From NCBI RefSeq assembly GCF_003018235.1, contig NZ_CP027439.1: a stretch of 64,000 nt of DNA. One strand, 5' to 3'. Shown here one piece after another: positions 57,652 through 61,038 of this stretch. Both the position numbers and the translations under genes were made by a program. The stretch's first letter is position 1. Every line of letters begins with the position of its first letter. This DNA comes from Escherichia coli (GTDB lineage: Bacteria > Pseudomonadota > Gammaproteobacteria > Enterobacterales > Enterobacteriaceae). The notes beneath the pieces are model-generated. The model searched no databases. It was not told where the DNA came from and saw only the letters and a list, made by a program, of their open reading frames with translations.

Positions 57652-58203
57652 ATGACGGAAATTTATAGTGATAACACCTTTTTTAACATAGACAGTATAA
57701 TTGGCACTGACACAAATGAATCAATATGTTGTGATGGTCGAAAACTGATAATAATAATTATAAGTAATAATATGCTAGGTTGTGGGAGTAACTACTTCTG
57801 CCAAATAATAGAACACATCAACAGGAAGAATAAAAAGAGTGACATAAATATCATAATCTTCTGCCGAAGGCGAATGGTTAATATAATATCCGATACGGTG
57901 AATAATAGAATACTATGCCTCCCCTACCATAGCTTAATAAGAGGCATGAGTATATCAATGCTTAAGGGGATATTTCTGATGAGTTTTAGGGAGCGAAATA
58001 TAAACTTAAGGGTGACCCCTGCAGAACAGAGGGTTATTGACTTATATCTTCATGGTAAGACATACGATGAAATAAGTTCTATTCTCGGAATAAAGCCAGG
58101 AACAGCATCAATTTATAAGAACAAAGTGATTAAAAGATTCGGCGTCTCGAATGAGTTGGAATTATTTTATAAGATGTATATCATAAACAAAGTAAAAGAT
58201 TAA
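57652..58203 (+). CDS. LuxR/GerE-family HTH regulator in AT-rich DNA
   Basis: C-terminal HTH LRVTPAEQRVIDLYLHGKTYDEISSILGIKPGTASIYKNKVIKRFGVSNELELF. Confidence 0.7.
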   Translation: MTEIYSDNTFFNIDSIIGTDTNESICCDGRKLIIIIISNNMLGCGSNYFCQIIEHINRKNKKSDINIIIFCRRRMVNIISDTVNNRILCLPYHSLIRGMSISMLKGIFLMSFRERNINLRVTPAEQRVIDLYLHGKTYDEISSILGIKPGTASIYKNKVIKRFGVSNELELFYKMYIINKVKD

Positions 58204-58224
58204 ATTAACAGGAGCAGAATACAT

Positions 58225-58250
58225 CCCCCCCTCGTCCGTGACAGGGGGGG
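58225..58250. repeat. C7/G7 inverted repeat hairpin between convergent genes
   Basis: ccccccc-N12-ggggggg read directly from the sequence. Confidence 0.7.
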
Positions 58251-58275
58251 CTTACTCAAGCAAGCTAACTGATAA

Positions 58276-59076
58276 TCAATTAATTGTCAGAACGATACGC
58301 CTGTTAGGACTTAAACATTTTCTGCGTTCTTTTTTATCTTTCTGTGCACAAAAAACTATAGGCTCAGAACTTCCTTTAGCTACCGTGGTTATGTCTTTGT
58401 CGGGAACGCCGTTGCGAATGAGAATATCTTTAACAGCATTTGCCCTTCTTTCAGATAAACGCATGTTGTAATTATCACTTCCTATATTATCAGTATAGCC
58501 GTTAATTACAATTTTACTATGTTTTTTACCATTGTTTGCTAATTTCTTGACTATAGTTGAAATAATTTCAATACCTTCACTCCCGATTGCTGAAGAATCA
58601 AAGGGAAATAGAACGTCCGCTTTTATTTCTAGCCTGCCATGGTCAAATTCATCCTTAGCAACAGAATGTGCAGGAGCAGAGTGCGGGGGCAGTTTGCAGT
58701 TATCAGGAAGCCAATATACTGACCCCACATTCATATTCTTGTCAAACAAGACTTTGAATTGACAGATATGGTGACCACTGTTATTTTCGAAATTGAATAC
58801 ATAGTCCCATTCCCTTACTCCAGCTACACCTTCGGAAAAGTGGGGACGACCGATTAAATTATAAATCTGATCTTTATTCATACCCTTTTTAATCATATAT
58901 ACATTATCCCAGTTTGGCCACGACCCGAATTGAGAACCATTATGATTAAATGTGGATTTTTCTATAGGTGGCCAAACTGGCTTTTCGCTCCGACCATCAT
59001 CAGAAACTTTGCTAAGATTACCACAACCAGATAATAATGATAATGACAATAAAGTTAGTACGGTTCTTCTAAACAT
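58276..59076 (-). CDS. OmpA-family lipoprotein with BamE(SmpA/OmlA)-like N-domain
   Basis: Lipobox LLSGCGN; C-terminal OmpA-like peptidoglycan-binding region (NGYTDNIGSDNYNMRLSERRANAV). Confidence 0.75.
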   Translation of the reverse strand: MFRRTVLTLLSLSLLSGCGNLSKVSDDGRSEKPVWPPIEKSTFNHNGSQFGSWPNWDNVYMIKKGMNKDQIYNLIGRPHFSEGVAGVREWDYVFNFENNSGHHICQFKVLFDKNMNVGSVYWLPDNCKLPPHSAPAHSVAKDEFDHGRLEIKADVLFPFDSSAIGSEGIEIISTIVKKLANNGKKHSKIVINGYTDNIGSDNYNMRLSERRANAVKDILIRNGVPDKDITTVAKGSSEPIVFCAQKDKKERRKCLSPNRRIVLTIN

Positions 59077-59109
59077 TTTTGCTTATTCTCTTATATTTAT
59101 CCAATATGA

Positions 59110-61038
59110 TTACCACTGATAACCGACGCCCGCCCCAACAGAAAAATTGCCACGTGTATTTTGTCCGGCATTCATTTTCAGAATAACCTTACCGTTGTCA
59201 GAGATTGTGGAGACACCAAGAGCAATAGCACTTTCACCGCCATATCCACCAACTCCAAGTCCGAGCAGACTTTTACCAGGTAGGTATGCTTGTGGTATAG
59301 CCGACATTGCTGCTGCGGAGGCTCCAACACCACGTATGTCTTTATTTAAACCATCAATACGATTATTAAGTTGATTGAACTTATTACCTATTTGATTGAT
59401 CTCACTCGTGTTTTTACTAACCTGTTGGTTTGTCGAGTGTAACTGACTTCCATTTACTGCGTCTGTTGATGTTTCTGATACAACACCGGGTGCCACATTC
59501 TGAATCTGACGTTCATTATTTACAGAACCAACAGAAATAACAGCTGTTGTTTTCCCTGTTTTTCCAGCAGCAGGAGCGTTGTTTATACTATATGAGCCAG
59601 TATGTGCTCTCTCCGCTTTTGCCCCATGACCAAGAGCAATAGACCCTGCAGGTGCTTTATCACTTACAGTCGAGTTGTGACCAATCGCTATACTATCATT
59701 GGCACTAGCCTGAGCAACGGGGCCAACTGCTATGCTGTTTTTTCCTCCCGGAACAGGTTCTGATTCAGAAGAATTAGCTTTGAAATATTTACTGTTGGTG
59801 GTTATATTCGTTAACTGTTGTGATACTGAATTATCCAGTTGTTTTAGTTGAGCAACATTGACTGCATCAGAATCTGCTGAACCTGCAGCCACATTTGTTA
59901 TCTGCCGTGTTTTCGACTCGCCATTATACTTCCCACCGAGAGAAACAGCTCCACTTGTAGAGATCCAAGTCGCACTTTTGTCTTTAATTCCCCCCTTAGG
60001 GGTCCATGCATCTGTTGCGCCAGCAGCCCGATCAGCGACAGACATGCTGCCGAGAGCCACACCATCTTCAACAGTAGCCTTACTGAAGCTTCCCAGAACT
60101 GTTGAACGAGCCGATTCAGCGGCTGTCTTTGTACCAAGAGCTACACTTGAGATTTCGTGAGCACCAGCCATAAAGCCAATAGCAGAGGAGCCATCTCCTT
60201 CTGCATTGGAATTATTCCCAACAGAAACAGATGCTGCGCCTCCTGATGTTGCGCCATATCCAACACTGGTTGCCATTTTCCCAACCGAACTGGAGAAAGA
60301 ACCAATACTGACACTCCCCGTTTTTTCTGCAGACGCTTTCGCTCCCAGACTTATTGATTGACTCCCTGTGGATAAGGAACTGGTACCAATACTAATGGCA
60401 TGTTCAGATGTGCTGTGAGCATTGTAACCTTGTGCGAAAGCGTTATCTGCCGTTGCCTCAGAGAATTTCCCTAAAGCCATACTGTATTCTTTACTTGCTT
60501 TTGCTTGTCCACCTATTGCAACTGAACCTGTACCAGAGGCATCCCCACCTATTGATACTGAAGCCCTCCCCGTCGCGAAACTTGACGGACCAAGGGCCAC
60601 GGAGCTATAGGCGGCCTTAGAGCTGCTTCCTACAGCGATAGCCGCGTCATCGCTTCTAGCATCAGTGCCAATAGCAATACCATTGTTTTTAGCTGAGGCT
60701 TTATATCCTATAGCAGCGGCGCCACTATCGCCTGCGACTGATTTTGTTCCAATTGCAACAGAGAATGGACCACTGGCAGTGTTCTCCTGACCGATAGTAA
60801 TTGCATGAGTACTTGATGAAGTATTTTTATCTCCTATTGCAACAAGACCGAAATTACTTACCGTATTGTGTTTATCACTATCCATCGTCACTCCACTGAG
60901 ATTTACTGCGCTGCCTGAGACTTTTGGTATACTTGTCTCCGCTGCATGAGTGCCGGATAAATAGGCCATGCTAATAATAAAAGATATTTTCTTTAGTTTT
61001 TTTTTCATTTTTTGCTTAGTTCCTTTACTTATAATCAT
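59110..61038 (-). CDS. Trimeric autotransporter adhesin (YadA-like)
   Basis: Signal peptide, repetitive Ser/Gly/Ala-rich head repeats (SVAIGxxAxA), coiled-coil stalk and a C-terminal YadA-type anchor ending GVGYQW; the true start is probably MKKKLKK at 61008. Confidence 0.8.
   Translation of the reverse strand: MIISKGTKQKMKKKLKKISFIISMAYLSGTHAAETSIPKVSGSAVNLSGVTMDSDKHNTVSNFGLVAIGDKNTSSSTHAITIGQENTASGPFSVAIGTKSVAGDSGAAAIGYKASAKNNGIAIGTDARSDDAAIAVGSSSKAAYSSVALGPSSFATGRASVSIGGDASGTGSVAIGGQAKASKEYSMALGKFSEATADNAFAQGYNAHSTSEHAISIGTSSLSTGSQSISLGAKASAEKTGSVSIGSFSSSVGKMATSVGYGATSGGAASVSVGNNSNAEGDGSSAIGFMAGAHEISSVALGTKTAAESARSTVLGSFSKATVEDGVALGSMSVADRAAGATDAWTPKGGIKDKSATWISTSGAVSLGGKYNGESKTRQITNVAAGSADSDAVNVAQLKQLDNSVSQQLTNITTNSKYFKANSSESEPVPGGKNSIAVGPVAQASANDSIAIGHNSTVSDKAPAGSIALGHGAKAERAHTGSYSINNAPAAGKTGKTTAVISVGSVNNERQIQNVAPGVVSETSTDAVNGSQLHSTNQQVSKNTSEINQIGNKFNQLNNRIDGLNKDIRGVGASAAAMSAIPQAYLPGKSLLGLGVGGYGGESAIALGVSTISDNGKVILKMNAGQNTRGNFSVGAGVGYQW

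Follow-up and report, generated by a model that had tools for sequence, protein, structure and literature searches.

The 64,000-nucleotide stretch of Escherichia coli DNA analysed here (the window; contig NZ_CP027439.1) carries three genes between positions 57652 and 61038. A LuxR-type regulator gene on the plus strand meets, tail to tail, a minus-strand pair that encodes a trimeric autotransporter adhesin (TAA) and an outer-membrane lipoprotein. We read the pair as an operon of the TAA-TpgA type, in which the lipoprotein would tie the adhesin to the cell wall and which the LuxR-type regulator accompanies, and we give this reading a probability of roughly 70%. In its core the island follows an arrangement already known and adds one more example of it; it is no new kind of system. 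Its open reading frames (ORFs) and the gap between the paired genes are listed below, with the evidence for each assignment in brackets.

57652..58203, plus strand: LuxR/GerE-type regulator with a pseudo-receiver N-terminal domain, 183 amino acids (Pfam, homologues, structure model).
58276..59076, minus strand: TpgA-like outer-membrane lipoprotein, 266 amino acids (Pfam BamE and OmpA; NCBIfam TpgA; TpgA-N in PDB).
59077..59109: spacer from the adhesin stop to the lipoprotein start, 33 nt, unstructured (-0.5 kcal/mol).
59110..61008, minus strand, within a 642-codon ORF that extends to 61038: trimeric autotransporter adhesin, 632 amino acids (Pfam, PDB, similarity to Sab).

The identities that an earlier note on this DNA had assigned to the three genes are correct, with Pfam matches above gathering scores to GerE/LuxR for the regulator, to BamE and OmpA for the lipoprotein, and to YadA_head, YadA_stalk and YadA_anchor for the adhesin. 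Two plasmids match the region 57000-62100: pSCU-111-1, from a human commensal E. coli, at 99.7% identity, and p100, from the canine E. coli 317, at 96.5%. Both are conjugative plasmids of the IncFII type. A metagenomic homologue of the island (L003) serves as a further comparison.

The earlier note had also placed the lipoprotein gene immediately upstream of the adhesin gene. The two genes are indeed co-oriented, but their order is the reverse, the lipoprotein gene starting 33 nt downstream of the adhesin stop on the minus strand. A terminator scan and folding found no terminator-like site or hairpin between them, and the short, unstructured spacer is consistent with co-transcription of the pair. 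Such pairs are known from other bacteria. The description of the TAA-TpgA cassette dates from 2016 and concerns Acinetobacter (Ishikawa 2016, cited after papers that refer to it). In Acinetobacter sp. Tol 5, TpgA is encoded directly after ataA and combines a BamE-like N-terminal domain with an OmpA_C domain; it binds peptidoglycan and promotes the surface display of AtaA (PMC12523085). In a crystal structure at 2.6 Å (9VNJ), the AtaA barrel bears three N-domains of TpgA on its periplasmic face (Yoshimoto 2025, PMC12523085). Downstream of a taa gene lie 91% of the TpgA-cluster genes, with Escherichia among the hosts (PMC12523085), and a 2026 preprint counts 644 TpgA homologues that adjoin TAA genes. 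About 80 Escherichia plasmids in PLSDB encode a related, Sab-type lipoprotein, whose gene in pO113 stands directly after sab. The pairing, which the earlier note had called uncommon, is therefore an established cassette, and the suggestion that the lipoprotein may assist anchoring or secretion agrees with the properties of its homologue TpgA, which binds both the adhesin barrel and peptidoglycan (PMC12523085).

The lipoprotein consists of a lipobox (LLSG↓C, Cys18), a BamE-like N-domain (PF04355, 52.7 bits, residues 51-117), a disordered linker and an OmpA-like peptidoglycan-binding C-domain (PF00691, 81.8 bits, residues 156-252). Cys18 is followed by Gly-Asn, and by the usual lipoprotein sorting rule, under which such residues after the cysteine direct a protein to the outer membrane, the product should be sorted there. 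Its top NCBIfam match is TpgA (NF047726, E 4.9e-42), with residues 55-263 aligned to positions 52-266 of the 268-position model. For the N-domain, the sole PDB sequence match at E <= 0.01 is TpgA-N (9vnj_B, E 4.8e-14); no BamE chain is found among the PDB matches at this threshold, and by sequence the domain groups with TpgA, not with BamE. Its topology in the AlphaFold2 model, alpha-alpha-beta-beta-beta, is that of TpgA. The top 50 Foldseek matches were all OmpA-like C-domains, and the assignment of the N-domain therefore rests on sequence and topology. At the residue level, TpgA K64/D65 align with K68/D69 of the lipoprotein (within NKDQ), a pair that is invariant in 30 homologues, and the peptidoglycan-binding residues Asp196 and Arg211 are likewise invariant in the homologues. 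On the side of the partner, AtaA K3576/D3601 (numbered on the assumption that chain residue 108 is residue 3630) have aligned counterparts in the adhesin anchor, the Lys in YLPGK and the Asp in ISDNGK.

The adhesin has a Sec signal peptide, MKKKLKKISFIISMAYLSGTHA, followed by YadA-like head repeats, a neck and stalk, and a four-strand anchor of the Hia/Sab type. The passenger matches YadA_head (111.6 bits) and YadA_stalk (90.4 bits), giving it the head, neck and coiled-coil stalk of this class, and the YadA-like anchor of four beta-strands (PF03895, 66.2 bits) occupies residues 582-642 of the 642-residue ORF. Among solved structures, fragments of the YadA head, AtaA, SadA, UspA1 and BpaC match the adhesin, and the best match of the anchor is the Hia translocator (E 1.4e-22 to 4.6e-25). 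The most likely start is the ATG at 61008, which has AAGGA upstream and gives 632 residues; the ATG at 61038 was rejected as a start, since it lacks a ribosome-binding site and reads CTG in p100, the 96.5%-identical plasmid. An A9 tract follows closely on the start codon, and phase variation by way of it was also considered and rejected: in p100 the tract is interrupted, not length-variable (ATGATAAAAAAACT), and in L003 it is missing.

Close relatives of the adhesin are few. In a collection of 5.8 billion proteins just two close clusters exist, that of the adhesin itself and a 69%-identical one from gut-type metagenomes. By tblastn against plasmids, its C-terminal 227 residues (416-642) are 65.6% identical to Sab, the 1,431-residue adhesin of plasmid pO113 from E. 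coli that produces Shiga toxin (STEC). Judged by sequence, Sab is the closest characterised relative over these C-terminal residues only; the two are not full-length orthologues, with 30-38% identity in repeat-level matches outside residues 416-642 and lengths of 632 and 1,431 residues. An affinity to the UpaG/EhaG type, as had been suggested, is not borne out, since proteins named UpaG or SadA share 30-31% identity with the adhesin over 75-78% of its length, through the repeats. The names Saa and Eib are missing among the best 120 matches of the adhesin and EibD structures are not among its PDB matches, a result that involved no comparison with a Saa or Eib sequence. The adhesin is a rare and so far uncharacterised E. 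coli trimeric autotransporter encoded on a plasmid.

Complex formation, tethering and an effect on display can be proposed for this pair from its homology to AtaA and TpgA. Exported by Sec, the adhesin is predicted to form a surface homotrimer, in which three copies would contribute four strands each to a 12-stranded outer-membrane barrel that displays the YadA-like head and stalk. The BamE-like N-domain of the lipoprotein would dock on the periplasmic face of this barrel, three per trimer (3:3), through Lys68/Asp69 against the Lys (PGK) and Asp (SDNGK) of the anchor loops, and the OmpA-like C-domain would bind peptidoglycan through Asp196/Arg211. An adhesin tied to the cell wall in this way would be better displayed at the surface and would resist extraction under load.

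The same layout recurs with other adhesins. In six cassettes with five adhesin types (window/p100; L003; the Sab pair of pO113 and p100; L023; L025), a spacer of 23-42 nt separates the adhesin gene from the lipoprotein gene downstream of it; two of the cassettes, both of E. coli type, have adhesins of 1,152 and 1,881 residues. Across the cassettes the passengers range from 632 to 1,881 residues and differ in sequence, and the last 75 anchor residues are nearly identical. From these alignments the system looks like a conserved anchor-plus-lipoprotein module with exchangeable passengers, and the constancy of anchor and lipoprotein lends indirect support to a functional coupling of the two. Against L003, the three genes of the locus have 0.19-0.22 non-synonymous differences per site (pN) and 0.63-0.90 synonymous differences per site (pS); all three are under purifying selection.

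The regulator ends in a GerE-type helix-turn-helix (HTH) of the LuxR/FixJ/NarL class, with a Pfam match above the gathering score, and its N-terminal receiver-like domain lacks the phospho-acceptor Asp of a phosphorylatable receiver. The RefSeq/PGAP annotation covers only the last 74 codons (12714-12938 in L001; 12990-13214 in p100, L002). The full 183-residue ORF is nevertheless real and the public annotation shortened, because homologues of 66%, 48% and 27-30% identity align along the whole length, because the comparison with the 66% homologue gives pN 0.22 and pS 0.90 with the N-terminal part included, and because of the structure model. Between the window, pSCU-111-1 and p100 the protein does not differ (100% identity) and its gene has two synonymous differences only, whereas the flanking intergenic DNA differs by 7-8%, and the flanks in the three plasmids by 2-8%. 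An exhaustive search of 1.84 billion representative proteins returned four relatives at E < 1e-10. For three of them (48%, 27% and 30% identical) the alignment spans most or all of the protein; the fourth, of 887 residues, matches in the HTH region only. In 72,556 plasmids tblastn found no relative beyond the two known plasmids.

The earlier note had proposed that the regulator could be a dedicated activator of the adhesin; synteny makes control of the adhesin by this regulator plausible. An identical protein occurs in 240 blocks of the assembly collection, and the lipoprotein and 632-residue adhesin genes adjoin it in all ten of the distinct contexts listed; the 66%-identical homologue lies beside a cassette in four of four loci. 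Remote homologues are found at L017 823-2934, L020-L022 and L007-L010, and a family-wide link of the regulator to surface-adhesin loci appears to be undescribed. In the metagenomic homologue (L003 12142-16603), the TAA gene is followed by insertion sequence (IS) fragments and then by a fimbrial operon. With the operon that directly adjoins the 48% regulator homologue (L007 8779-10407) it shares 88% identity, and the pattern suggests that adhesin cassettes have been assembled mosaically around the regulator position. With its few relatives the regulator may form a very small, hitherto undescribed family devoted to surface-adhesin loci acquired horizontally, whose members may act with IbrA/IbrB-like proteins to switch on AT-rich, silenced adhesin promoters, though this reading is doubtful. 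LuxR-type counter-silencers provide a precedent. The regulator of the window would most likely modulate transcription from the AT-rich promoter regions of the island, perhaps countering silencing of the H-NS type, a putative role that is drawn from synteny.

Elsewhere in the window there are an F-type transfer region and repA, and the locus is therefore an accessory island on a large F-type E. coli plasmid. The exact locus is rare: it was found in 2 of 5,426 complete E. coli genomes and in 2 of 72,556 PLSDB plasmids, and in these collections no further record matches the region 57000-62100. As the earlier note had recognised, the DNA is AT-rich and foreign in appearance. The plasmid backbone has a GC content of 51.4% and the module (56954-64000) one of 37.8%, with 32.8% in the luxR gene, 37.1% in the lipoprotein gene, 45.2% in the adhesin gene and about 28% in the long intergenic regions. 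Around and between the three genes lie the following features.

55701..56953, plus strand: IS3-family insertion sequence with orfA (55761-56060) and orfB (56099-56923), 57.5% GC; ends approximate.
56954..57651: AT-rich non-coding region upstream of the regulator, 28.4% GC, 91.7% identical to p100.
58225..58250: GC-rich hairpin, C7...G7, -23.9 and -28.3 kcal/mol by strand (z -2.6 and -3.0).
61009..62057: divergent intergenic region between the adhesin and protease genes, 1,049 bp, 28.2% GC, 93.2% identical to p100.
62058..64000, plus strand, running out of the window: decayed gene for a serine-protease autotransporter (SPATE, S6 peptidase), by comparison with the intact p100 gene.

Here the island is bounded on the left by the complete IS3-family element, and homology to p100 begins at 56954. 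In p100 (L002 10077-11932) and several draft genomes, the same position is taken by an ibrB-like gene (weak ParB_N match) and an ibrA-like gene (PAPS_reduct and DUF3440), divergent from the regulator; the whole 64-kb window lacks any ibrAB-like sequence. PADLOC gave no indication that these genes and the regulator form a defence system, returning weak matches alone (BrxP, 8e-6; DndC, 7e-4). IbrAB has been reported to enhance expression of the Eib trimeric adhesins (Sandt 2002, as cited in PMC7649339), and the ibrAB-like neighbours are therefore themselves candidate regulators. On the other side, the SPATE gene has an extended signal peptide region (ESPR) signal and is transcribed divergently from the adhesin gene. 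Compared with the 1,371-residue gene of p100, it carries a T8 to T7 slip, more 1-bp frameshifts and deletions of 55 bp and about 190 bp, and it is fragmented in the same way in pSCU-111-1. Two forms of the island can thus be told apart. The fuller form, of the p100 type, runs ibrB-like, ibrA-like, regulator, lipoprotein, adhesin and intact 1,371-residue SPATE; in the reduced form, shared by the window and pSCU-111-1, IS3 stands in place of the ibrAB-like genes at 56954 and the SPATE has decayed, the regulator-lipoprotein-adhesin trio being the part that survives intact. The best-supported reading is that the island in this plasmid is a reduced version of a mobile adhesin/protease island.

Two other clusters were noted in these plasmids. 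Beside the island, at about 49270-55340 of the window (L001 4331-10398), lie genes for a tannase/feruloyl esterase family hydrolase, an isopentenyl-diphosphate isomerase, a DUF554 protein, a UbiX-type prenyltransferase, a UbiD-type decarboxylase, a LysR regulator and a YhbP-like protein; together they make up a module for aromatic-acid decarboxylation, unusual for an F-type plasmid. Plasmid p100 has a second adhesin cluster (L002 21892-28715) that encodes a PapB/FocB-like regulator, a 1,439-residue Sab-like TAA, a TpgA-like lipoprotein with its gene 23 nt downstream, and a separate 254-residue protein with a YadA/Eib-type anchor.

In relatives, the counterpart of 56954-57651 is the divergent control region of the ibrA-like gene and luxR. 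The region 61009-62057 is a presumed promoter region, unrelated to that upstream of the L003 homologue. The regulator gene and the adhesin operon converge on a gap of 72 nt. The hairpin in it, at 58225-58250, has no U-tract and is not a canonical intrinsic terminator; it is a probable two-way terminator or insulator, and L003 has a different, unrelated hairpin (AAAGGGGAT...ATCCCCTTT) at the same position. A further terminator-like hairpin with a T-run (GGGAAGG...CCTTCCC TTTTTT) lies on the minus strand at 56971-56991, at the edge of the shared module inside the IS3 junction. Rfam gave a single, chance-level match (E 0.99) in 56900-62300. The H-NS nucleation motif TCGATAAATT is not enriched in the window (57 matches, 57.8 expected), its local excess in the island being due to AT content, and it is from AT content that H-NS silencing may be proposed.

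Several observations weigh against a dedicated adhesin tether, chief among them the missing aromatic tip, the sub-threshold equivalog score and the stand-alone PlpD relatives. The score of 144 bits against TpgA NF047726 lies below the equivalog cut-off of 350, which makes the lipoprotein a homologue and not an NCBI-defined equivalog. The tip L80/F81 of TpgA, whose aromatic residue is needed for strong binding to AtaA (F81A reduced binding in a pull-down; PMC12523085), is replaced by Val84/Ala85 here and by Ile/Ala in L003; Sab-associated lipoproteins and PlpD retain an M/L-F/Y tip. No co-variation signal links tip and anchor, the tips varying (VA, IA, MF, LF, II, IV) beside nearly invariant anchors. 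The window protein also has a lipobox, whereas descriptions of Acinetobacter TpgA place it in the periplasm, with AtaA holding it at the outer membrane. The nearest relatives outside E. coli (45-49% identity) are moreover stand-alone genes in a housekeeping context in Pasteurella, Glaesserella and Gallibacterium. The lipoprotein could accordingly be a general PlpD-type tether between outer membrane and peptidoglycan, without specific binding to the adhesin and placed beside it by co-transfer. We consider this improbable: every one of the six cassettes has its lipoprotein gene a short way (23-42 nt) behind a TAA gene with one and the same type of anchor, the lipoproteins have an invariant K/D contact pair whose K and D counterparts the anchors retain, and the great majority of TpgA-cluster genes follow a taa gene. 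The Pasteurellaceae themselves have Hia-type anchors that retain the same K and D, so that PlpD could act in trans. It is somewhat less improbable, but still unlikely, that the island is a decaying remnant whose adhesin operon is silent or non-functional in this plasmid. The adjoining SPATE is a pseudogene, the relatives of the reported Eib activators have given way to IS3, and the promoter regions are extremely AT-rich, hence likely H-NS targets. Yet none of the three ORFs is disrupted in the window, pSCU-111-1 or p100; per site, the comparison with p100 gives more synonymous than non-synonymous changes (codons: luxR 2:0, lipoprotein 6:3, adhesin 22:18); and the same reduced configuration is seen in several independent assemblies.

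It is a serious possibility, though one we lean against, that the regulator does not control the adhesin and serves instead a neighbouring unit (the ibrA/ibrB-like genes or, ancestrally, a chaperone-usher fimbrial operon) or chromosomal targets. Four TAA-lipoprotein cassettes, those of the Sab pair, L023 and L025, have no LuxR-type regulator, and in the case of Sab a PapB-like regulator is present instead. Next to the 48% homologue, and convergent with it, stands a chaperone-usher fimbrial operon, the copy of which in L003 stands just beyond the TAA cassette; no TAA gene occurs near this homologue. The 30% homologue is upstream of a classical autotransporter gene (1,446 residues), and the 27% homologue immediately precedes ibrA/ibrB-like genes of its own strand. 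The regulator and ibrA-like genes of p100 and L003 are divergently oriented, and in the window the regulator is convergent with the adhesin operon, with a hairpin in between. Nor do the non-coding regions offer a site of action: a promoter scan found 24 promoter-like sites against 21.3 +/- 3.9 expected, no excess, and the four upstream regions of the window and L003 share no operator, each having short AT-rich palindromes of which none is common or convincing. Control of the adhesin is favoured by the fact that the regulator is intact and strongly constrained (no non-synonymous difference to p100) in a reduced island that has lost ibrAB, in which the SPATE has decayed and the adhesin operon is intact, and by its presence with the cassette in 14 of 14 contexts from two diverged lineages.

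Gene structure, homology, the conserved contact and peptidoglycan-binding residues, recurrent synteny and purifying selection are established directly, and none of the findings overturns current understanding. They add a rare plasmid-borne E. coli adhesin to the TAA-TpgA class and bring to at least five the number of such cassettes on E. coli plasmids, one of them with the virulence-associated Sab, all with a near-invariant anchor and differing passengers. For type Vc secretion, they mean that the enterobacterial TpgA-like proteins are lipoproteins, that some lineages can do without the published aromatic tip contact or have replaced it, and that the nearest relatives of these proteins are stand-alone Pasteurellaceae PlpD antigens. 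The regulator, whose relatives too are met beside ibrAB-like and adhesin genes, is a concrete candidate controller of silenced adhesin islands. Further work would be best spent on its family and on the link to PlpD.

Among the closest known systems is AtaA-TpgA. Both pairs have a TAA gene and, after it in an operon (for the window, a probable one), a gene whose product joins BamE-like and OmpA_C domains; the best NCBIfam and PDB matches of the window lipoprotein are to TpgA, and the equivalents of the contact residues, the N-domain topology and the peptidoglycan-binding Asp/Arg are kept in the window pair. Identity to the lipoprotein is about 45%, in the N-domain only. AtaA, at 3,630 residues, is far longer than the 632-residue adhesin, whose anchor is of the Hia type (E 1e-22) and not of the AtaA type (E 3e-9). 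The lipoprotein has a Pfam BamE domain and an OmpA domain in addition, BamE itself being a single-domain lipoprotein that binds BamA and BamD; the regions that contact BamA and BamD have been reported to differ in TpgA (PMC12523085). The regulator, for its part, resembles GadE and DctR/YhiF of E. coli, atypical NarL/FixJ-family regulators with non-phosphorylatable receiver-like domains. Like it, they have about 180 residues, a C-terminal GerE HTH and an N-terminal alpha/beta domain without the acceptor Asp, but its N-domain has no detectable sequence relationship to either, and its own small family is found on mobile DNA, next to adhesin or ibrAB-like genes.

Sab is, like the window adhesin, a plasmid-borne E. 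coli TAA, and the two barrels are almost identical. In pO113 a BamE-plus-OmpA lipoprotein gene follows 42 nt downstream of sab, with a product 42% identical to the window lipoprotein, and p100 carries both the Sab-type and the window-type cassette. The passenger of Sab differs, however, with merely 30-33% similarity via repeats, and sab has a PapB-like regulator gene upstream where the window cassette has a LuxR-type one. It is also common in plasmids of STEC negative for the enterocyte effacement locus (LEE), in contrast to the two complete genomes with the window locus. The closest homologues of the lipoprotein outside the E. coli group are the Pasteurellaceae proteins of the PlpD/Plp4 type, 45-49% identical over the full length. 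They share its lipobox, its conserved mature N-terminus (CGNLSKV..G...PVWP) and its two domains, but they have a Leu-Phe/Tyr tip that the window lipoprotein lacks, and they are encoded by stand-alone chromosomal genes amid housekeeping genes with no TAA gene nearby (L012-L016). PlpD is a candidate vaccine antigen (PMC2653537). Hia (2GR7, 3EMO) shares the anchor motifs PGK and SDNGKVI with the window adhesin; its passenger is unrelated, it has no adjacent tpgA-like gene, and it is the one cassette-less TAA that keeps the D3601 equivalent (PMC12523085). Stand-alone PlpD proteins may therefore be trans-acting equivalents of TpgA for Hia-type anchors, with the E. coli cassettes as their captured, cis-linked version; taken jointly with a dedicated regulator family, this proposal is doubtful. 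A role of PlpD as trans partner of Hia-type adhesins would fit both the Hia-like anchor of the window adhesin and the D3601 equivalent kept in Hia.

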